Origin: an uncultured Candidatus Binatia bacterium | GTDB lineage: Bacteria; Desulfobacterota; Binatia; Bin18 | NCBI GenBank assembly: GCA_965200965.1 | Contig: OZ241744.1 | Coordinates: 1,376,001-1,440,000 of the forward strand | DNA: 64,000 nucleotides | Direction of reading: 5' to 3' | Part shown: piece after piece, positions 5,688 to 54,099 of the stretch | How the letters are laid out: each line of letters opens with the position of its first letter | Position numbering within the stretch: the first letter of the stretch is position 1 | Translations under genes and position numbers: made by a program | The notes under the pieces: model-generated | Seen by the model: the letters and a program-made list of their open reading frames with translations, nothing else | The model's database searches: none | Told to the model about the DNA's origin: nothing

Positions 5688-6089
5688 TTAGGAGAGACGG
5701 TCGAAATGGACCTCAATATGCCTTGACTGGACACGTTTTTCGAGGGCACGTCGGAGAGACAGCTTGAGGGCGCTCCGGGTGGGCGGAAACAGGAGGCCCA
5801 GACCAAGCGCATCGGTCAAGACGCCGGGTGTAATCAGCAACAGGCCGGCGACCAGGATCAGGACCCCGTCGATCAATTCATGGGTCGGCGTCACCCCCCG
5901 CTGCCACTCGGTCTGGATCTTACGCCATATCCGCCAGCCTTCCAGTCGGGCCAGATACGCCCCGGCCATACCTGTGCCAAGAACGAGCAGGATGGTCGGT
6001 CCGGCCCCGAGGTAGCTCCCGATGGTCAGGAGCAGGTAGAGTTCAATCAGGGGCAGAAAGGTGAAGAGGAGGAGAAGGCGTAGGAACAT
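5688..6089 (-). CDS. fxsA: FxsA family membrane protein
   Basis: MFLRLLLLFTFLPLIELYLL...LLITPGVLTDALG; start moved to ATG at 6089. Confidence 0.85.
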   Translation of the reverse strand: MFLRLLLLFTFLPLIELYLLLTIGSYLGAGPTILLVLGTGMAGAYLARLEGWRIWRKIQTEWQRGVTPTHELIDGVLILVAGLLLITPGVLTDALGLGLLFPPTRSALKLSLRRALEKRVQSRHIEVHFDRLS

Positions 6090-6281
6090 GGACTCAGTGA
6101 AACAAAACATAGCCCAAATGTCAAAAGGCATAAGGCCGCAGCTCACACGCCCTATGCCTTGGAAGCTCGCCAAGCCGTTGGCACGACGCAAGCGAATGTG
6201 TCAGAATGTGTGCAAAGATTGTATTCGCCATGTTCCAGACGTGCTGACCCTTGTTCTCAACACACAGGAAGACGGACTCAC

Positions 6282-9005
6282 ATGAGGAAACTGATTGTCT
6301 TTGGCCTCATACTCTTGCTGCTGCTCGGCGGTCTGATCGGCTTTGCCGCCTCAAATCTCAACAGTCTTGTCAACGCCAGTAAAGACCGGCTGTTGGCCCA
6401 GGCTGAGCGGGCGCTGGGCCGCACGCTACAGATTGGAGAAATTGAGATCAGTCTGTGGGGTGGGGTGGGGGCCCGGCTGCAAAACGTGGCTCTGGCCGAT
6501 GACCCGGCCTTTTCCTCGGAGACTTTTGTCCAAGCAACAGAGGTGCAGGTCAAGGTCAAGCTCATGCCGCTTCTCAGGCAAGAGATTGAGGTCAGGCGGG
6601 TCAGTGTGCGTGATCCGGTCATTCGGGTGATTCGCAACGCCGAGGGCGTGTTCAATTTTGCCAGCCTGGTGAAAGGGGAGACGCGGGACGCTCCGCCCCA
6701 AACTTCTGAGGCCACACCGGCGAGCAGCGCGACGAGCGGTGCGGACGGTCTTCCGCTGTTGTTGGTGGCGCTGGCCAACATCTCTAACGGCGATATTCAC
6801 TACACCGATCAGGGCACGAATACTGAACTCCGTGTCAGCCAGATTGACCTCGAAGTCGAGGACCTCAGCTTTGATCAGCCTCTCAGCCTGGAGTTGGCCG
6901 CGGCCCTGCTGTCCAAACGGCCGAACCTCCACCTGGCGGGCAGCTTCGGCCCGCTAGGCCGAGAGGCCGAACTCCTGGCCGTTGACGCCAGCCTGAGGCT
7001 GGATCCGCTCGATAGTGCCGTCCTGCCTCAGGCACTCCCCCAGCTCGCCGATGCACTCCCGCCCGGCCTCGGCCTGTCCGGCCCGCTGCGCGTCAGCAGC
7101 CGCATATCGGGGACTGTCAGAGCCCTGATGGTGTCGGATTTGCGGCTGACGGCGGCGGTGTTTGAGTCCGACCAAGCCAATCTCCAGGTGACGGGTGAGG
7201 CAGGCCCGCTGGCCCCCGATATGGCCGCGCTGAGCCTCAAGACCGATATTGCCCTGGGGCCGGTCGGTCTGCCCCAGCTGCTGCAATTTGCCCCGCTGGC
7301 CGAATATCTCCCGGCCCAACTCAGTGCTGAGGGTAGGGCCGCGGTGACGGTCCATGCTGAGGGCCGGCTGAACAATCTGGCCCTCACCGCAACAGTTGAC
7401 GCAACGGACAGCGCGCTTCAGTTTGGAGGCCAGTTTCAGAAACCCCAGGGCACGCGCCTGGTCGCGTCAACCAACGCCCGCCTGACACCAGAGCGCGTCG
7501 CAGTACAAGGGGCAAAAATCCAGATGCACACGCTTGCGCTGACAAGTCACGGTGAGCTCACCCTTGGCAAACCCCTGGGTCTGGACCTGCACCTGGACTC
7601 CAATACTGTTGACCTAGCCGGCTGGCAAGAGATTTTGCCCGAGATGCGAGCGTTTTCTCCTGGAGGCCAGATGGAGCTGGACTTCCATATCAAGGCGACC
7701 GAAGAAGGGCGGCCCACAATTACGGGGACGCTTGACCTCCGCGAGGCAAGCGCGAGTCTGGCCCAACTCCCCCAGCCGGTGACCGCCTTGAACACCTCGC
7801 TGACCTTTACCGGTCAAGGTGCCGACATCCAAAACGCCTCGGCCCAGCTCGGCGGCTCGGCCCTCGAGTTTACCGCCAGCGTTGCGCGTTTCAGTCCCCT
7901 GAAGGCCAGCTATCGTCTGCGTTCACCCGAGCTGTGGCTGGCCGATGTCCAGGCCGGCGACGGCTGGCCGTCAGCTTCTGATGTGCTGCGCGATTTCACG
8001 AGCGAGGGTCGGCTGCGGCTGGAGAACAAACGGCTGGCGTTCAACGCCACCCTCTCATCCACCCACGGCCGGCTGGTCAATGTGGACTATAGCGATATCC
8101 ATACGGCGCTGGCCGCACTCGACCGGACCGTCAGGCTTGAGCTACTCAGCCTGCACACCTTGGGCGGCTCTGTCAGCGCCTCGGGCCGTTACGAGATGGG
8201 CGCAGCCCCGCCCCGGTTCCAGTTCGCTTCACAACTTACCCGGATTGAGTTGGCCGGGCTGTTCAAAGCCTACCTGCCGGGGGCGCTTGACGCGGCGCGC
8301 GGCACGGCCAGTTTGACCCTGGGCCTGACAGGCCACGGCCGGGACTGGCCGGCGATACAAGCCAGCTTGGACGGTCAGGGCGAGTTGGAGGTCACAGACG
8401 GGGCACTGGTCAATATGAACATTGCCGACGAGGTGCTGAGGAGGCTCAGCGGGATTCCCGGTCTCACAGCGCTCATCTCTCCGGAAGTGCGAGCCAGATA
8501 TCCGGCCCTGTTCAGCCGCCACGGGACCGAGTTTTCCCGGCTCGGCAGCCAGTTCCGCCTCAGCCAGGGCAAAATCCTGCTTGACGCAGCGCGTCTGGAC
8601 GCGGCCGGCTATGCGGCCCGAGGCAAGGGCTGGCTGGACTATGAACAGAACATTGATTTTCAGGGCCAACTGATTCTGGCCAAAGATCTGTCACAGGACA
8701 TACAGGCCAGCGTGAGGCTGGCCAGCCTGCTCAGCAACGCTCAGGGACAGATCACGCTCCCCTTTGCGCTGAGCGGCAACCTGCCCGGTGTAAAACCCGT
8801 CCCGGATGTTGCGGCTGTGGCCCAGCGGGTGCAACACGGCGTCGTCACCAGCGGCCTTGAAGCCTTGCAGGAAAAAGTCCTGGACAAGCTCCTGCCCCCA
8901 CCACCGGACGAAGACACGCACCCCGAGCAGGAGGATTCCCCTACCGGCCCGGTCACGCCCCAGGATATGTTGAGAGAAGGCTTGGAGGGACTGTTTGGAC
9001 GTTAG
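6282..9005 (+). CDS. AsmA family protein
   Basis: N-terminal TM anchor, ALGRTLQIGEIEISLW and beta-rich repeats, AsmA-like C-terminus; start at ATG 6282. Confidence 0.8.
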   Translation: MRKLIVFGLILLLLLGGLIGFAASNLNSLVNASKDRLLAQAERALGRTLQIGEIEISLWGGVGARLQNVALADDPAFSSETFVQATEVQVKVKLMPLLRQEIEVRRVSVRDPVIRVIRNAEGVFNFASLVKGETRDAPPQTSEATPASSATSGADGLPLLLVALANISNGDIHYTDQGTNTELRVSQIDLEVEDLSFDQPLSLELAAALLSKRPNLHLAGSFGPLGREAELLAVDASLRLDPLDSAVLPQALPQLADALPPGLGLSGPLRVSSRISGTVRALMVSDLRLTAAVFESDQANLQVTGEAGPLAPDMAALSLKTDIALGPVGLPQLLQFAPLAEYLPAQLSAEGRAAVTVHAEGRLNNLALTATVDATDSALQFGGQFQKPQGTRLVASTNARLTPERVAVQGAKIQMHTLALTSHGELTLGKPLGLDLHLDSNTVDLAGWQEILPEMRAFSPGGQMELDFHIKATEEGRPTITGTLDLREASASLAQLPQPVTALNTSLTFTGQGADIQNASAQLGGSALEFTASVARFSPLKASYRLRSPELWLADVQAGDGWPSASDVLRDFTSEGRLRLENKRLAFNATLSSTHGRLVNVDYSDIHTALAALDRTVRLELLSLHTLGGSVSASGRYEMGAAPPRFQFASQLTRIELAGLFKAYLPGALDAARGTASLTLGLTGHGRDWPAIQASLDGQGELEVTDGALVNMNIADEVLRRLSGIPGLTALISPEVRARYPALFSRHGTEFSRLGSQFRLSQGKILLDAARLDAAGYAARGKGWLDYEQNIDFQGQLILAKDLSQDIQASVRLASLLSNAQGQITLPFALSGNLPGVKPVPDVAAVAQRVQHGVVTSGLEALQEKVLDKLLPPPPDEDTHPEQEDSPTGPVTPQDMLREGLEGLFGR

Positions 9006-41739: not shown

Positions 41740-42897
41740 TCAAGAAGGTTCGTCAGTATCGTCCCCCTCAAAGAGCTCGGCCAACCTATCTTCGTAGTCC
41801 CACAGTATAGAATCGACAATTCCGTATCCGTCGCAATCAAACACAGATTCTCCGCCCTCGAACGGAGCTCCACGAATAAAGGCTGAAACAGCTACACTTT
41901 CTAAATACTCTCGCAATTCTTCAAGGCTTGTAACCGGTGTAGCCATACGGTCGTCGTCAGGATCATAAAATATGATCGTCTTATTGTTGCTGTCCCATTC
42001 AGCGCCTTCAAGCGCGCCTGAGACCGCCTCGCGTGCGTCTATTTCCCAAGGCATTTCTTCTAAATATAACTCCCACTTGGAAAGATAATCGTCCAGTATT
42101 TTATGAAGCTGAGGATGTGTGTTGTCGTAATTCTCGGTGAGACTGATGCTAGGACGGCGGTTGTGAGCGACGCAGTTACGCATCTTTTCTATGGAATCCA
42201 TCAAATTTTTTAATCCGGCTAATAGTTCCGCGTCGTCTTTGTGTTCTATGGGAACACGGTTAAACTCCTCATAAAATTTCTCGTAGGTATCTGCATTGCG
42301 AATAACTGTAAGAAGGTCATCGAGTTTAAATTTTTGTCTCTGATTAAGCTCAGCATAGTTTCCAAACGTCAGATGAAAAAATTGGTTCTCCCTTCCCACC
42401 TTCATATCATTCTCTGTCGGCTTTACCCTTGGCTTGACTGTCTCATCGCGGAGCAGATTAAAAGGCTCTTCACTCTGGTAAGCGTGTAAATAGATGATCG
42501 ACAGGACGCGGCGCAATTTCATCTCCAGCGCAAAAATCTCTTTGGCCCGCTCGGCGAGTTCAGCTTGGAGCAAAGGGTCTTCAAACTTCACCGCGTGGAT
42601 GATAGGTGGGGTATCGGACAGGGCATCAGCAAACTCCCGAACGACAGTTTCGGCAGACGTAGTTTCCTCTGGCAATTCAAGAACGAAACCTACGAGTAGG
42701 TGAGAAGTCTCTGTTCCATTACCACCAGTAGACTCCTCGCCGGAACGCCGGTGACGAATTTGGATCATGCGGTCTACGATGTCCACACCAAACTCATTCT
42801 GGTTATTCTCCAGCACTCCGGCAAGCAAGCTAGCCACTACCTGCCGGAGGTCCATTAGCGGTATCGCACGACAAGAGATAATGAATTCAAAAGTCAT
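41740..42897 (-). CDS. HEPN-motif (Swt1-like) protein, putative defence RNase
   Basis: FALEMKLRRVL helix and RNCVAH (R-x4-H) motif; AT-richer than flanks; ATGA overlap with the S gene stop. Confidence 0.65.
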   Translation of the reverse strand: MTFEFIISCRAIPLMDLRQVVASLLAGVLENNQNEFGVDIVDRMIQIRHRRSGEESTGGNGTETSHLLVGFVLELPEETTSAETVVREFADALSDTPPIIHAVKFEDPLLQAELAERAKEIFALEMKLRRVLSIIYLHAYQSEEPFNLLRDETVKPRVKPTENDMKVGRENQFFHLTFGNYAELNQRQKFKLDDLLTVIRNADTYEKFYEEFNRVPIEHKDDAELLAGLKNLMDSIEKMRNCVAHNRRPSISLTENYDNTHPQLHKILDDYLSKWELYLEEMPWEIDAREAVSGALEGAEWDSNNKTIIFYDPDDDRMATPVTSLEELREYLESVAVSAFIRGAPFEGGESVFDCDGYGIVDSILWDYEDRLAELFEGDDTDEPS

Positions 42898-44300
42898 GGT
42901 GCGGATGGTCCTAGCAATTGCTCCTCAAACCAGCGCTTGGCCTCCTGCCAACCGGCTTCGGCCTCGGCGCGAAGGCGACGAGCCTCATTACGGCGACGGC
43001 GGAGCTCGGCGACTATTTTTTCTTGGACTTCCAGTTTGGCGACCGGAATGAGCAGATTTACCACATCGTCATTTGTGAGACGGGGATGGGTATTGCCCGT
43101 CATCATGTGGACGGTCTGGGCAAGTACCATCCGACTCCGCAGTACCGCAGCGAGATAGTCCGGCAATAATTTTCCGGCGTCCCTTACGCGGAGAACATGG
43201 AACTCGGGAGAGCAGCAACCATTTCTTTCCGCACGATGAACCTTGTTCAGATACGGCCGTAGACGCGCAAAGAGAATATCACCAACTTTATAGGTGAAAC
43301 AGGTTCCTTGAGCGGTGTCAGCGGAATCGGTCAATTCTCCTGTGTGGCTCTGAACGTGTGCGAGGCTCAAATAGTTTTCGCCGGGCGTATCGAGTTGATT
43401 CCGCTGAAAACTCACCACTTCGGAAAGCCGTGCAACCGTCAATCCCCCGGAGGCGCTATCTAGCGTACATAGAGCCCTCAGACGGTCCGGGTGATAGTAA
43501 TCTGCATTGAGTCGTCCGTCGGAACATAGCTGTGTCAAGCGAACTGCAAAGACACGGCATGAATCCTCAGACGGTAGCGTGATGCCCAGCCCATCAAGCA
43601 GGAAATCATCAATGCCGGCCAATAGTGCATTAGCCTCGGCGCGAAGACGACGAGCCGCCTCACGAGCCGCTTTTATTGATGCAACAATTTCGTTCTGGCG
43701 GGATTCCGAAAGTTCTGGAAACGGAAGAGCCTCAAGAAATGTCGCAGGGACTCGCTGCTGCCCGGCTGAACCCGTAAAGGCGTAAGTCGCAAGGCGACGA
43801 AGCGATGCCTGACTGACAAACTCCATGACGAACTCTTTGGAAATTCCAGGAGCACGCACCCTGAGAACGTGAAACTCTGTCGAACCGAACCCTACGCCAT
43901 TTGGTAGCCTGTCTACAATACACGATTTTCCGTTCTGCATACACGGCGTAATCTTCGCCCACAGGGTGTCTCCGTTGATGAAGGGAGTATAGCCCTTGCG
44001 TACTTCTTTAAGTGGCCTGTTTGTAACTGTGTATTCTCCCGTAGCACCGTCGGAAACCGCTTGCATTGGTATGAAGCCCACAAGATCGTCCTCACCAATC
44101 CCAGCTATATTGACGGGTGGATTAACATCAACATAGGCCGAAAGTGGCTTACTAGCCGTCGGATTCCTCCGAAGACCCTTCAAATAGAGTCGGAGTTCTG
44201 GCGTATGGAGAGGGACACTTAACGAAAATCCCTCTAAATTGCCCCGCTTCACCGCAAAGCACTGAGCTTTGCCCGGTTCAGCGGGGCTTAAGCGAAAAAA
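42894..44300 (-). CDS. hsdS: Restriction-modification specificity (S) subunit with two TRDs; probably entered by -1 frameshift from the upstream gene
   Basis: TRD motifs (AKITPCMQNGK, GSTEFHVLR, GSAGQQRVP; ARLRPYLNKV, SPEFHVLR) each followed by a coiled-coil conserved region; no credible start codon. Confidence 0.85.
   Translation of the reverse strand, partial: FFRLSPAEPGKAQCFAVKRGNLEGFSLSVPLHTPELRLYLKGLRRNPTASKPLSAYVDVNPPVNIAGIGEDDLVGFIPMQAVSDGATGEYTVTNRPLKEVRKGYTPFINGDTLWAKITPCMQNGKSCIVDRLPNGVGFGSTEFHVLRVRAPGISKEFVMEFVSQASLRRLATYAFTGSAGQQRVPATFLEALPFPELSESRQNEIVASIKAAREAARRLRAEANALLAGIDDFLLDGLGITLPSEDSCRVFAVRLTQLCSDGRLNADYYHPDRLRALCTLDSASGGLTVARLSEVVSFQRNQLDTPGENYLSLAHVQSHTGELTDSADTAQGTCFTYKVGDILFARLRPYLNKVHRAERNGCCSPEFHVLRVRDAGKLLPDYLAAVLRSRMVLAQTVHMMTGNTHPRLTNDDVVNLLIPVAKLEVQEKIVAELRRRRNEARRLRAEAEAGWQEAKRWFEEQLLGPSAP
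44241..44300 (-). promoter_or_regulatory. Putative -1 programmed ribosomal frameshift cassette
   Basis: T_TTT_TTC (44300-44294) in the RM frame, GCTTAA spacer, hairpin GCCCCGCT-GA-ACC-GG-GCAAAGC-TCAGT-GCTTTGC-GGT-GA-AGCGGGGC (44287-44241). Confidence 0.65.
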
Positions 44301-46303
44301 AGTGTCGGGTCTCTCTGAAACGCCCTCCACTTGCGCAACAGGCCGGTGTCGGGGATGATTTCGCGCCGGCGTTCGCTCCAGTCAGGCTTCTTTGGGTTGG
44401 CGGTGCTCCACTCGTAAGAGACGCGGTAGTCAAACAAGTCACAGCTTTGCCGCTCAATTTTCTCCTTGCCCGGCTCTTCCTTCTCAACAGTCACCTCAAA
44501 GGTTTTCCGCCCGGTGGCGTCATAGCCGATGTTGTCCGTCAAGGCCATGAAAATGGGGGCGTCGTCGGGAACGGTCTCGCCGTCCTTGAGGCGACGGAGG
44601 AAAACGAGGCTGGCCTTGACGCCGGCGTCGTAGTGCTGAAAAGCGAACTGCGGCAGGCTGACGACTGCCAGCAGTTGGAAATGCTCAAGCAGCCAGTTAC
44701 GCACGCCCTGGAGCGAGGAGTTGGTGAGAATGCCGTCAGGCAGCACCACCGCGGCACGCCCGCTGCCAGGCTTGAGGAAAGAATAGACACGTTCGAGGAA
44801 CAGGATTTCTGTCTTGACGCTGGCGCGGGCTTTGACCGCCTTGGCCCCGCTCTTCGCGCCGACTGCACCGTTTTTCTTGGCATCCGGATACTTTTTCCCG
44901 ACGTAATCCAGGAGGTCAAACTGCCCCAGATAGTCGGCACCCTTCTCTGCCCGCCTGACGACAGACCCAAAAGGCGGGTTGGTCAGAATCAGGTCAAATT
45001 TGCCTGAGGCGAGTCCCAGATTTTTGGCGCGAAGCTCTTTCAGAAAGTCCAGCGCGTCATGGCCGACAATGTTGGAGTGTCCGTCGTCATGGACGATCAT
45101 GTTCATTTTTGCCACGCGGGCCAGTTCGTCGTTGATCTCAATGCCAAACAGGTTTTTCTGGGCAAAGTCATGCCAGAATTGAAAATGTCTGGCTGTGTTG
45201 GATTTATGCTTGTGGTCCGCTTCGCGGCGAACATGGTCCAAGGCGTACAGCAGAAAGCCGCCTGAGCCACAGGCCGGGTCAAGGACCAGATGCTTGCGTT
45301 TGGGGTCAAGCACTTCCACGGCAAAGGCGATCAACTCGCGGGGTGTGAAATACTGGCCGAAGTCACCCTTGAAGAAGCCGCCCATGAACTCCTCAAAGGC
45401 AACGCCTTTGGTGTCAAGTTCGGTGCCCTGGAGCGATATGCCTTCCAGGTGTTCCACACACTGTGCCAGAACGGGCGCGTCTACATTGATGCGGTCGGTG
45501 AACACATCCGGTTCCAACTCCTTCTCATGTTCGTAAAGGCGGTGAACGCGCTCGGCAAGTTGGGCGGTCGTTTCTCCATCGCGGCGTTGAAACTCGTAGG
45601 GCTGGCCGTCTTCGCGGTCCGGGTCCTTCTCGTCACGGTTCTTGACAAAGACCAGTTTGGAGAACTCGCCAAAGGCGGCGATGGGACTGCGTTTTCCGCC
45701 CTCCCAGAGCGTTTGATGACACTTGCGGATGGCGGCGCGCAGCGCTTCGCGGGGAATGGCCGCAAGGTCGCGGCCCGGCTCGTTTTTGTGGAAGCGCCAG
45801 GGAAGCGGCTTACCATAGCGCTGGGGGATATCGGTGAGATGGTTCCTGTCCCGCTCGCCAGGTGGAAACGTGTCGAACCGCAGCAGACGGCGTGTCAGAC
45901 CGGCGATTGATCCGCAGTATGTCGCGCCAAGGCTGGCCCTGTTGCCACACGCCTGCTCAATGGACTGGCCAAACCCGCCATCGCTGATATCGGTCCGCTT
46001 GCACTCGAACACGAAATACGGAGATTTCAGCTCATCATCGTCATAGACGACAATATCGGCAAAATCGTTCGGGGTCCGGCGCGGAACGTTGACCTCAAAA
46101 CGGATGCGCTCGGGCGGGTAGTCATACTTATAGATCAGCTCCGCCCAGAACTCGGCGCGGACTTTTTCTTCCGGGTCAGCCCACCGTTCCGAATGGCTGG
46201 CCGCCTTGTAGTGGATGCGCTCGGCCCTTCCTTCGCCGGTAATTTCCGCCTTGCCCTCGGCAAGGGCGTACTCAAGGTAAGGAGGCTGTCGTGTGTCAGG
46301 CAT
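44288..46303 (-). CDS. Fused restriction endonuclease (HsdR_N-type PD-(D/E)xK) and N6-adenine methyltransferase (Type IIB/IIG-like RM subunit)
   Basis: PEEKVR, ADIVVY, FECK nuclease motifs; GQYFTPR, LDPACGSGGFL, TNPPFG MTase motifs; no helicase subunit in the window. Confidence 0.9.
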   Translation of the reverse strand: MPDTRQPPYLEYALAEGKAEITGEGRAERIHYKAASHSERWADPEEKVRAEFWAELIYKYDYPPERIRFEVNVPRRTPNDFADIVVYDDDELKSPYFVFECKRTDISDGGFGQSIEQACGNRASLGATYCGSIAGLTRRLLRFDTFPPGERDRNHLTDIPQRYGKPLPWRFHKNEPGRDLAAIPREALRAAIRKCHQTLWEGGKRSPIAAFGEFSKLVFVKNRDEKDPDREDGQPYEFQRRDGETTAQLAERVHRLYEHEKELEPDVFTDRINVDAPVLAQCVEHLEGISLQGTELDTKGVAFEEFMGGFFKGDFGQYFTPRELIAFAVEVLDPKRKHLVLDPACGSGGFLLYALDHVRREADHKHKSNTARHFQFWHDFAQKNLFGIEINDELARVAKMNMIVHDDGHSNIVGHDALDFLKELRAKNLGLASGKFDLILTNPPFGSVVRRAEKGADYLGQFDLLDYVGKKYPDAKKNGAVGAKSGAKAVKARASVKTEILFLERVYSFLKPGSGRAAVVLPDGILTNSSLQGVRNWLLEHFQLLAVVSLPQFAFQHYDAGVKASLVFLRRLKDGETVPDDAPIFMALTDNIGYDATGRKTFEVTVEKEEPGKEKIERQSCDLFDYRVSYEWSTANPKKPDWSERRREIIPDTGLLRKWRAFQRDPTLFFA

Positions 46304-46381: not shown

Positions 46382-47102
46382 TTAAGCCCTGAAGGTAGAC
46401 CGGATTTCTTTCCGATACATTGCTATCAGGCTGTCCTCGGGAATCTGACCCCAGATCAGCCAGTAGAGGAGTTCGTCAACAACTTCAAGAGCGTCATTGC
46501 TGAGTTTGTGCTCGGACACTTGATAAGCGTTATGGTGTGCGCCTATTGGCTGTAAGTGATCCAGCCGAAGAATTGACTCATCAGGCCCAGCTATCGGCAG
46601 CTTATCCCAAAGGAACTGTGGGTATTCGCAATGTCGAATACGCTCCACAAACCCAGGATTATATCCCCCGCGGCTGCCGTCTCTCGTTGCGCCATAGTAC
46701 GGCACTGCCAATATCGTTGGCGCAGTCGAATGCCTTGCCATACCCCTGGTAAGGGGCTGGTCAACAGGCGGGCCGCCGGAGCCGACGATCAGGCACGGCC
46801 TCTTCTTGGCCCGATAAGCGGCCCAGACTTCACCCGGATGCAAAGGCATTGCAGCAACGGGCAATTCCGTCCTCTTGAGTGGCTGACCAATCCGAAGGGG
46901 CGCTACTCGAATTGTCGCGCTGTCGTGCCGAGTGGCTTCTGCTCGGGCCAGGGGCTCAAATGTGTAGGGAACTTGGTCAATGTGCGGAACAAAGGCGGAG
47001 ACCAGCGCGCCACGACACAAAATCTTCCTGGAATTCTCTATCCACCAAGTGCTCGCAAGTGCTCGGGTGAATGAGGGACTGAACACAATCGTCAGGATAC
47101 AT
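46382..47102 (-). pseudogene. MazF/PemK-like toxin candidate frameshifted by a 10-bp tandem duplication
   Basis: MYPDDCVQSLIHPST joins WWIENS... once one copy of CAAGTGCTCG (47046-47065) is removed; KKRPCLIV, ILAVPY, SILRLDHLQPI resemble PemK/MazF motifs. Confidence 0.6.
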
Positions 47103-47889
47103 CCCCGCCCTTCCTGGTGGGAGACTTCCAGACCTCATCTGAAAACTGGACGGTGTGTTCGCCTTCCGGCAAGGGGGCACCGGCGAGACTATCAAGCCAA
47201 TTCATGCCTTCGTCGTACACCTCGTCATAACGGGCATCTGGTACTGGGTTAATCAGCCTGGGAGCTTTTTTTCCCCTGTTTTTATATTTCGCTCGTAGTG
47301 CCCGCATTCGTTCTCTGAACTTTTTCTTTTGCCCAATTGATAAGCCAGCCATCTTCAACGGTTTCTGAACAGAGTCATGGATTGCGTTGTCCTCGGCGGC
47401 AACGGTAAAATCCAGAGACTCATTCGGTGCTGCGGATAGCATGGGTTCCGTACCATAGACGGCATGCAGTAGACTGTGCGTGTCTTGCCCGAATTGGCGC
47501 ACCTCTCCTTTCAGGCCCGAGATTATCTCAAATGGGAGTTGGCTCTCCAACTCCTCCAGCAGCCGCCCGTCACGCAGATGCCAACGAACCCAATCCTGCC
47601 TGTCCTCATAGTCGCTCTGCAACGACCGTCTCTCCGCGCTGATTGCCCTCAGCGCTGGCTCAATGCGCGCATGAACAGACAGAGACCAAGGACCAAATTT
47701 GTAGAATTGCCATTCGGTACCGGTAAAAATAGCTCCATTGTTGCGTTTCGCGTGGAAAAGGTCAGCCAAGTAGACATACTTGACCAGGTGAATTGGGCCA
47801 AGCTGACGATCAGAGAACTCATCTTGCTCTCCGGCAACCAGCAACGCGTACTGGAGCAACACATCAACACGGGAGAGGTCTGTCGGCAT
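47092..47889 (-). CDS. Panacea (DUF4065/SocA-like) antitoxin with C-terminal extension
   Basis: HLVKYVYLAD...G..FTG.EW.FYKFGPW motif; overlaps the downstream toxin start by 11 nt. Confidence 0.7.
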   Translation of the reverse strand: MPTDLSRVDVLLQYALLVAGEQDEFSDRQLGPIHLVKYVYLADLFHAKRNNGAIFTGTEWQFYKFGPWSLSVHARIEPALRAISAERRSLQSDYEDRQDWVRWHLRDGRLLEELESQLPFEIISGLKGEVRQFGQDTHSLLHAVYGTEPMLSAAPNESLDFTVAAEDNAIHDSVQKPLKMAGLSIGQKKKFRERMRALRAKYKNRGKKAPRLINPVPDARYDEVYDEGMNWLDSLAGAPLPEGEHTVQFSDEVWKSPTRKGGDVS

Positions 47890-47998
47890 CAATTCGACTC
47901 ACAGGGATGAGAATCAGAGCGGGGGAAGGTGAACATCGAACATCCCCTGACGACGATGTTCCTCATGCGCTTCTCCCGGAGTGGCGAGCCTACCAGAA

Positions 47999-52104: not shown

Positions 52105-54099
52105 ATGCGTCGTCCTGTCCTATTTGCATGCCTGTTCACCGTCCTGTTCGGAAGCAGCCCGAGTTGGAGCCAGACCACCTCAGCCTCCCCCTCAGCGCCC
52201 ACCCTGACGAGCCTAGCGAGCGAGGTCGCAACCTTGAAGGCTACTGTCACTACCTTGCGGACCACCGTGGCCAAGCTGACCCGCTACATTCAGGTTATCG
52301 AGAATGCAGCCACCAGCACCTACCATGGCCTGAGCAGTCCGCATGTGGTCTTCACCGGGGCCAATGTCCACATCCGCAGCGGGTCGTCGGGGGTGACCCA
52401 TAAAGGACGGACCGTGAACGATGGCTGGGTCTCCGAACCCCTGGGGCTGGGCAACCTGATTATCGGCTACAACGAGGCGAACACTTGGCCGACTGCGGAT
52501 ACGGCCCAGCGGGGCGGCTCGCACAACTTGGTGATCGGGAGGTATCATCAGTACCCCACCTCTGGTGGGTTGGTGGCGGGGGAGGATAACGTCATCTCCG
52601 GCCATGCGGCGAGCGTGAGCGGCGGCACTCGGAACACAGCCAGCGGTCCTGCGGCGAGCGTGAGCGGCGGCACTCAGAACACAGCCAGCGGTCCTGCGGC
52701 GAGCGTGAGCGGGGGCTACCGCAACCGCTCCAGCGGCTATCACACCAGCGTGAGCGGCGGCGGTCAGAACACGGCCAGCGGCTCTAACTCCAGCGTGAGC
52801 GGCGGCCATGCCAACACGGCGACGAGCATCGCGGCGAGCGTGAGCGGGGGGCTAGAGAACACGGCCAGCGGCTCTAACTCCAGCGTGAGCGGGGGGCTAG
52901 AGAACACGGCCAGCGGCTCTAACTCCAGCGTGAGCGGCGGCCGTCTGAACAGGGCCAACGGAGGGAACTCCAGCGTGAGCGGCGGCCACAGCAACACGAC
53001 CCGGCATTATGACTCCAGCGTGAGCGGCGGCCATGCCAACACGGCCAGCGGCTGGGCGGCGAGCGTGAGCGGCGGCACTCAGAACACAGCCAGCGGCGCT
53101 GACTCCAGCGTGAGCGGCGGCACTCAGAACACAGCCAGCGGTCCTGCGGCAAGCGTGAGCGGCGGCTACCGCAACCGCTCCAGCGGCTATCACACCAGCG
53201 TGAGCGGCGGCGGTCAGAACACGGCCAGCGGCGCTGACTCCAGCGTGAGCGGCGGCGGTCAGAACACGGCCAGCGGCTCTAACTCCAGCGTGAGCGGGGG
53301 GCTAGAGAACACGGCCAGCGGCTCTAACTCCAGCGTGAGCGGCGGCCGTCTGAACAGGGCCAGCGGAGGGAACTCCAGCGTGAGCGGCGGCCACAGCAAC
53401 ACGACCCGGCATTATGACTCCAGCGTGAGCGGCGGCCATGCCAACACGGCCAGCGGCTGGGCGGCGAGCGTGAGCGGCGGCGGTCAGAACACGGCCAGCG
53501 GCGCTGACTCCAGTGTGAGCGGCGGCACTCAGAACACAGCCAGCGGCGCTGACTCCAGCGTGAGCGGCGGCGTCGGCAACATGGCCAGCGGCTCTAACTC
53601 CAGCGTGAGCGGGGGTGCCAACAACACGGCCAGCAGCCGCCAGTCGAGTGTGAGCGGGGGCCTCAGCAACACGGCCAGCGGTGCTCACTCCAGTGTGCTC
53701 GGTGGCGGCCGCAACACGGCCAACGGCTTTAACTCCAGCGTGAGCGGGGGTGCCCGCAACACGGCCAGTGGTCAGGCGACGAGCCTGAGCGGGGGCTGGG
53801 GCAACACGGCAGGTGACTATGGGGCCAGCGTCAGCGGCGGCATTCGCAACAGGGCCCTGGGCCGGATGGCCAGTGTGAGCGGCGGCAGGGACAACAGGGC
53901 CCTGGCTAATGAATCCAGCGTGAGCGGGGGCAAGAACAACACGGCGATCGGGAAGCGGAGCAGCATCAGCGGGGGCGAAAACCAGACGGTCAACGGCGAC
54001 CTCTGGTCCTGCTGGGGCTGGGGGGCCGTGCCTCGCCCGCTCGTCCCGTCCAGAGACAGTCCCTTTCGCCAACATTCCGTCGGGCTGTTGCGCCCATAG
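52105..54099 (+). CDS. Secreted Gly/Ser-rich protein with 31 x 15-aa SVSGGxxNxAxGxxS repeats (predicted beta-solenoid)
   Basis: AGAAGGAG RBS, signal peptide, short coiled coil, GLGNLIIGYNE domain, repeat array. Confidence 0.85.
   Translation: MRRPVLFACLFTVLFGSSPSWSQTTSASPSAPTLTSLASEVATLKATVTTLRTTVAKLTRYIQVIENAATSTYHGLSSPHVVFTGANVHIRSGSSGVTHKGRTVNDGWVSEPLGLGNLIIGYNEANTWPTADTAQRGGSHNLVIGRYHQYPTSGGLVAGEDNVISGHAASVSGGTRNTASGPAASVSGGTQNTASGPAASVSGGYRNRSSGYHTSVSGGGQNTASGSNSSVSGGHANTATSIAASVSGGLENTASGSNSSVSGGLENTASGSNSSVSGGRLNRANGGNSSVSGGHSNTTRHYDSSVSGGHANTASGWAASVSGGTQNTASGADSSVSGGTQNTASGPAASVSGGYRNRSSGYHTSVSGGGQNTASGADSSVSGGGQNTASGSNSSVSGGLENTASGSNSSVSGGRLNRASGGNSSVSGGHSNTTRHYDSSVSGGHANTASGWAASVSGGGQNTASGADSSVSGGTQNTASGADSSVSGGVGNMASGSNSSVSGGANNTASSRQSSVSGGLSNTASGAHSSVLGGGRNTANGFNSSVSGGARNTASGQATSLSGGWGNTAGDYGASVSGGIRNRALGRMASVSGGRDNRALANESSVSGGKNNTAIGKRSSISGGENQTVNGDLWSCWGWGAVPRPLVPSRDSPFRQHSVGLLRP
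52612..54006 (+). repeat. Coding tandem array, 31 x 45 bp, no phase break
   Basis: AGCGTGAGCGG core recurs every 45 nt; unit 31 starts exactly at 53962. Confidence 0.9.

Follow-up and report, generated by a model that had tools for sequence, protein, structure and literature searches.

A 64,000-nucleotide (nt) stretch from an uncultured Candidatus Binatia bacterium (contig OZ241744.1; called the window below, with positions counted from its first letter) carries on its minus strand a gene for a combined restriction nuclease and methyltransferase (RM) and, after it, an open reading frame (ORF) for the specificity subunit (S). The 62-base element at their junction is likely (probability about 0.85) to be a programmed -1 ribosomal frameshift signal, by which one message would give both RM (671 amino acids, aa) and an RM-S fusion (1136 aa). 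The junction is real and conserved, and we consider it very likely to be a programmed -1 frameshift. In the proposed mechanism the Phe-tRNAs sit on UUU UUC while the ribosome would pause at a hairpin; ribosomes that do not slip would add one residue and stop, releasing RM, and those that slip (tandem -1) would read on into S, making RM-S. One free RM joined by one RM-S would then be equivalent to the (RM)2S assembly known from Type IIB enzymes, a trimer in which each recognition domain has its own RM.

At the end of the RM gene the minus strand reads ACA CTT TTT TTC GCT TAA, with the hairpin next, and the parts of the junction and the two genes are located as follows:

44294..44300, minus strand: slippery heptamer U_UUU_UUC in the RM frame, read from the sequence (T_TTT_TTN in 116 of the 117 split loci described below)
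44288..44293, minus strand: 6-nt spacer made up of the last RM codon and the RM stop, read from the sequence (6 nt in 114/117 loci)
44241..44287, minus strand: 47-nt RNA hairpin, the predicted frameshift stimulator, which also encodes the first S residues (folding and covariation)
44288..46303, minus strand: RM gene, 671 aa, an ORF with an HSDR_N-type nuclease and an N6-adenine methyltransferase (best solved relative RM.BsaXI, E 3e-34)
42894..44294, minus strand: S with two recognition domains, read from the slip site; predicted fold of pLDDT (model confidence score) 89.6, matching HsdS and S.BsaXI folds
44328..44330, minus strand: GTG 12 codons before the slip site, a by-product of the RM Gln/Lys-Trp codons, without a Shine-Dalgarno (SD) sequence
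44064..44066, minus strand: earliest ATG in the S frame, 89 codons after the GTG and already within the first recognition domain

The first-pass annotation, made from the letters alone, had described the heptamer, the 6-nt spacer, a hairpin with three named stems, an RM of 671 aa and an S ORF in -1 phase, all of which were confirmed on the sequence. The S frame is open from 44330 to 42894 (minus strand), in -1 phase relative to RM, and supplies 466 codons to a predicted fusion of 670+466 = 1136 aa; the trans-frame junction would read ...DPTLFF-RLSPAEPGK..., and the predicted junction peptide spanning RM and S is DPTLFFRLSPAEPGK. The earlier description of the S starts, with a GTG at 44330 devoid of an SD and a first ATG about 89 codons in, also agrees with the sequence, anti-SD pairing amounting to -1.7 kcal/mol at the GTG, -2.4 at the ATG at 44066 and -5.8 at the RM start. 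Judged by the predicted structure, an S started at that ATG (residue 77) would have a first domain short of one helix and two strands; residues 1-30 of the S model are of low confidence. The window hairpin has a z score of -3.94, none of 200 shuffles being equally good. It has no match in Rfam and is absent from the terminator listing on either strand, the T run standing 5' of the hairpin. Elsewhere in the same genome a T6+H run, one codon and a stop occur together at 32 sites, and a hairpin of <= -25 kcal/mol follows at 2/32, of which the RM site is the stronger; the other is G000:C1 around 1732778 (+).

To follow the junction among relatives, 158 loci were fetched, of which 29 ended short of the RM end and 11 repeated a junction already present, leaving 119 including the window: 117 split loci, which cover at least 14 phyla, and two in-frame fusions (L003 and L051). 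Cultured carriers include Microcystis (L038), Thiobaca (L067) and Chlorogloea (L030). Among the best 120 homologous proteins, 118 stop at the same place, mostly as ...PFFV or ...PFFA. The heptamer of the split loci is T_TTT_TTC in 104, T_TTT_TTA in 7, T_TTT_TTT in 5 and A_TTT_TTC in 1; in other words, TTT TTN stands in frame at the RM end in 117/117 with a T in front in 116, and the first Phe codon is always TTT (117/117, vs a background of 41%). The constraint reaches one codon further upstream, where Pro is encoded by CCT in 93/94 cases vs 18% elsewhere in the same genes and where the non-Pro codons end in T in 23/23. The T run is T6 in 107/117 loci (the longest is T8), and the hairpin begins 6 nt behind the heptamer in 114/117. 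The -1 frame differs between the two sides of the site: a -1 stop lies within the 12 codons upstream in 27/117 loci, as near as 4 codons before, and none is found in the 30 codons after it (0/115), the +1 frame being closed there in 95/115. Within the stem the S frame is under synonymous constraint far above background, with Pro as CCY in 112/114 and Gly as GGC in 98/109. The first-pass annotation had proposed asking whether homologous RM/S pairs keep the heptamer, the -1 phase and a hairpin that covaries; all three proved conserved across the split loci, as did the spacer.

Some single loci depart from the common form. In L009, L010 and L044 the long hairpin at the RM end has given way to a different, short one, GCCCCGCCCAAGCGGGGC; L078 and L079 have the stop immediately after T_TTT_TTT with the 6-nt spacer retained; and in L125 the first stop is gone. 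RM is present twice in one Dehalococcoidia genome (L039 and L040), the copies being near-identical but paired with different S alleles, and each has the cassette. The closest relative, L001 (90% RM identity), has the cassette but an S of only one domain, the final helix of which has fallen out of frame (around 5911-6650), and is possibly an intermediate toward the fused form or a broken copy. No RM relatives were found in viral contigs by protein search and no DNA matches in E. coli genomes; plasmid and phage records gave only relatives of <60% identity, with the cassette in 0/10 examined (four single long chains, six split otherwise).

The hairpin is folded more stably than its composition predicts (z < -2) in 101/115 loci. 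The same threshold is passed by 2/66 control segments at the matching FAV motif of the second S repeat, 2/115 upstream and 11/114 downstream, and in the in-frame fusions L003 and L051 the hairpin is lost, with z near 0. When the arms were anchored on the stop and the protein motif (112/117 loci), pairs 5, 7 and 8 covaried beyond all of 2000 shuffles. In a MAFFT alignment of 80 of 115 junctions, selected by visual inspection and for the most part with hairpins of the same length, 84.3% of cells are paired vs 78.0 in shuffled alignments (0/500 as high) and 39-47% in slid controls, both sides have changed at 11/18 hairpin pairs, and RNAalifold recovers the outer 8-pair stem unaided. On this comparative evidence the hairpin is an RNA structure and not a by-product of protein coding, since it is missing at the second-repeat motif, has been lost in the fused loci, and covaries.

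A search around the junction showed that nature has also made the fusion directly, in-frame RM-S proteins being present among the best 120 matches. In seven in-frame fusions (five proteins plus L003 and L051) the linker between FF/FL and CFAV has exactly 11 residues, as in the predicted trans-frame chain; the junction of one such protein, P0130, reads FFRVSPSEQGEAHCFAV. Of 15 fusions with a clear junction, 13 have one recognition domain and 2 have two; among 106 complete frameshift loci, 86 have a two-domain S, 85 a full-length S and 21 a short S with ragged ends. The fusions are scattered inside the frameshift group, with 12 changes on the tree, at least 8 of them forced by well-supported branches. 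The pattern is consistent with each recognition domain requiring one RM: a one-domain fusion can then pair with itself, and an S with two domains depends on an additional, free RM. The composition of BsaXI is (RM)2S (PMC11997821), a one-domain BsaXI S leads to a symmetric site (PMC9159934), and the engineered EcoKI M-S fusion cuts in vitro only with free M added (PMC3510504). A possible deletion route is provided by a 32-nt repeat pair in S, as recombination from one copy to the other would reduce S to a single domain:

43633..43664, minus strand: first copy of the direct repeat (S helical region 1), 88% alike to the second
42961..42992, minus strand: second copy of the direct repeat (S helical region 2)

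The first-pass annotation held that the residues right after the slip site mirror the start of the second S half and so belong to the protein. A family consensus FAV..RxD..P is indeed present in both halves, and relatives that place the first-half module in the second S position show the mirrored motif too; the pairwise BLASTP comparison of the window's own halves misses the N-terminal motif.

The cassette is also found in a quite different setting. A 20-base pattern from the RM junction, searched in viral sequences (IMG/VR), gave 22 viral stretches (L169-L190), none of them similar to RM or S, and in 18/22 the match lies in register between a long ORF (or the contig end) and a long -1 ORF. 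By Pfam, the upstream ORF is a Mu portal protein in 8/8 tested and the downstream ORF a MuF protein in 7/8; an example of the cassette is L174:2501-2520. A collection made by portal protein instead (80 loci, L194-L273) reduced to 38 distinct junctions, one running off its contig: T_TTT_TTY stands two codons before the portal stop in 38/38, and MuF is in the -1 frame in 36. Some of these hairpins have their arms reversed (GGGCT...AGCCC), and a number of the MuF frames have a toxin-like domain at their end (CdiA_C, PBECR2, Gln_amidase). In a Porphyromonas prophage (L191:1974-4532) portal and MuF form a single in-frame gene of 853 aa whose junction still reads RRFFASAPSQGG, and in L193 the end of the portal gene carries A_AAA_AAT, MuF being in the -1 frame. 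As the cassette recurs at an unrelated protein junction, a constraint on the RM protein cannot explain the signal there. The RM and portal cassettes are nearly identical, for which either shared origin or convergence may account. No paper on a portal frameshift was found in the literature searched.

Several points weigh against a programmed frameshift that gives RM and RM-S. The loci are related, and hence the counts overstate the number of independent events; 14/115 hairpins are weak; and an upstream SD-like stimulator reaches <= -6 kcal/mol in only 7/117. In the E. coli constructs described in PMC5009743, U_UUU_UUA and U_UUU_UUU shift far less than A_AAA_AAG. A 1:1 ratio of RM to RM-S is accordingly hypothetical, being unassured where U-rich heptamers are weaker in E. 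coli and no SD-like stimulator is present. The in-frame fusions P0122, P0127 and the distant L164 have two domains, as do some known Type IIB enzymes made as a single chain (PMC11997821), so that free RM is perhaps not strictly needed. To these must be added the upstream start codons and the distant relatives considered in the next paragraph.

The main rival, which we regard as unlikely, is that S is a separate chain begun by translational coupling at the GTG or ATG 12 codons upstream, the hairpin tuning this start or the stability of the message. Such a codon is present in 98/117 loci and open to S in 80, which makes a free S possible; the expectation in the first-pass annotation that S start codons would be absent is to that extent incorrect, and what stands of it is that none of the 80 has an SD (0/80, vs 29/100 RM starts). 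The upstream NTG follows from conserved RM Gln-Trp codons (QW in 92/117), an open start at that distance is missing in 37/117, and in 23 loci no start codon of any kind comes ahead of the FAV motif. EcoKI hsdM and hsdS are described as coupled (PMC3510504), and in distant relatives of ~30% identity (L163, L165, L166, L168) RM and S overlap in the -1 phase, S starts are of the ordinary kind and the cassette is absent; because of these relatives, coupling may be the older state, perhaps persisting at a low level. Coupling leaves unexplained the fixed T run, the 6-nt spacer and the fusion linker.

The same fusion could be made if RNA polymerase slipped on the T run and added one U, a reading which we hold to be distinctly less probable than coupling. 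The site is a homopolymer, and Thermus dnaX reaches 1:1 in this manner (PMC5009743); the run here is T6 in 107/117 loci vs the runs of 9 described for efficient slippage, and the described stimulator is a nascent 5' stem (PMC5009743), whereas the conserved structure lies 3' of the site and is untranscribed at the time of the slip. The upstream control is unstructured, and the T run keeps its register with the codons.

Very improbable is the proposal that the junction serves as a homology block for domain swapping, with S silent or phase-variable until a DNA indel restores it. It draws on real exchanges at this locus, since in a contig of a near-identical strain (X9) the following segment is replaced (637 bases -> 643):

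43641..44277, minus strand: first recognition-domain module, swapped in the near-identical strain

The 5' break of this swap falls within the hairpin, just behind its 5' arm; the second break is in the helical repeat. In a further strain (X10) the first domain is also swapped, the sequence departing at 43640 with the rest of the locus nearly identical; moreover, in-frame fusions recur and 21/106 S frames are broken. The length and phase of the T run are, however, steady (T6 in 107/117), unlike a phase-variable tract, the compensatory base changes indicate an RNA structure, and S is full length in 85/106. An incoming module would have to bring a matching 3' arm, which may explain the near-invariant outer stem and the variable inner stem. 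An assembly error in a fused gene (homopolymers being error-prone) is refuted: the T7 run is real and not a misread T8, the junction being gap-free in contigs of three studies (X1 and X2 over the whole stretch, X6 over 43829-44800; the window itself may derive from X1 or X2), and 118 of the best 120 homologues stop alike.

From these results we lean toward a broader proposal, somewhat less secure than the frameshift itself. The system would represent a third motor-less architecture, an RM + RM-S heterodimer from one recoded gene, in which lineages repeatedly flip to an RM-half-S homodimer on domain loss, and the U_UUU_UUC-codon-stop-GCCCC hairpin module, which also joins phage portal to MuF, would be a device of general use in bacteria, by which some copies of a major subunit receive a minor one.

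RM carries HSDR_N_2 and N6_Mtase on one chain by Pfam, with these motifs:

RM residues D83 and E100-x-K102: nuclease motif of the N-terminal HSDR_N-type domain
RM residues DPACGSGG at 342 and NPPF at 442: methyltransferase motifs

E-x-K is kept in 118/119 RM homologues and NPPF/Y in 98/99, and a simple motif test for the HsdR motor subunit found no helicase-motif ORF in 51/51 loci of at least 9 kb. Because nuclease and methylase share one chain, RM.BsaXI is the best PDB sequence match and S.BsaXI a fold match, and helicase-motif ORFs are lacking by that test, the RM-S system probably resembles a Type IIB enzyme in its working. That class is defined by its cleavage pattern, in which both strands are cut on either side of a bipartite site, and has two RM for each S. 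The closest RM relatives belong to Candidatus Binatia and Acidobacteriota genomes, and the G+C content of the RM-S island is 54% vs 62% in its flanks.

In the surroundings of the system, a 385-aa ORF (window 41740-42897, minus strand) overlaps the S stop (ATGA) and matches nothing in Pfam, NCBIfam or PADLOC; since in L003 and L051, too, S is followed by the beginning of a similar gene, this ORF may travel with the RM-S system. Two ORFs of 234 and 266 aa (46382-47892, minus strand), belonging to no known family, lie just upstream of RM in the low-G+C island. The three neighbour genes tested gave no family match. Farther away, a 664-aa ORF (52105-54099, plus strand) contains many 14-residue SVSGG repeats, which we take to resemble an adhesin stalk or head repeat.

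Few cellular bacterial genes are known to use -1 frameshifting (PMC5009743 gives examples). No paper on such a signal in restriction systems was found in the literature searched (subscription journals, REBASE notes and patents being outside its scope), the portions consulted of PMC10885494 and PMC7911831 hold none, and the paper on the BsaXI structure (PMC11997821) never uses the word 'frameshift'. No such cluster appears in the main text or two supplementary files of the GeneTack paper (PMC3711429), whose file 1, outside this check, might list it. If the frameshift is true, databases mis-annotate the S genes of a widespread family with false starts, and cloning RM and S separately would miss the native enzyme. 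Subunit stoichiometry, and so the balance of cutting vs self-protection, would be tunable at translation, and a route would exist between two-chain and single-chain Type IIB/IIG enzymes.

Compared with known recoded genes, the junction shares with the dnaX and IS3/IS911 cassettes the X_XXY_YYZ heptamer, the short spacer, the 3' stem-loop and, as predicted, two chain lengths per gene (PMC5009743), and its spacing of 6 nt falls within the 5-9 nt expected between a -1 site and its 3' structure. One described form of dnaX has the stop directly after the site with the long chain arising from the shift (PMC5009743), as is predicted for RM-S. It differs from dnaX and IS3 in its U-rich Phe-Phe site where they have A_AAA_AAG, in the upstream SD-like stimulator of their type, not found here (7/117 at <= -6 kcal/mol), and in belonging to a restriction system. 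The magnesium-chelatase and csoS2 genes are likewise cellular genes with conserved -1 frameshifts whose products enter multi-subunit assemblies; their heptamers and proteins are different, and csoS2 shifts into a stop (PMC5009743). In the MADS defence system, the proteins MAD2 and MAD5 are a related methylase and specificity protein, from which the present proteins are set apart by NCBIfam scores far below the cut-offs (302 vs 720 and 44 vs 400). The engineered EcoKI 'Type IMS' enzyme is alike in being an M-S fusion that needs one free M, for which its authors suggest proteolysis or stalling as the source (PMC3510504); it differs in being artificial and of Type I with HsdR, and the native EcoKI genes are coupled, not recoded (PMC3510504). 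A programmed frameshift, if true, would be a natural answer to the question of the free M that the EcoKI fusion left. The Type IIB enzymes BsaXI and BcgI likewise combine a nuclease-methylase chain with a two-domain S and no motor subunit (PMC11997821, PMC9159934); in the known enzymes S is a separate chain beside RM or part of one RMS chain, whereas in the system described here it would be joined to RM through the predicted frameshift.

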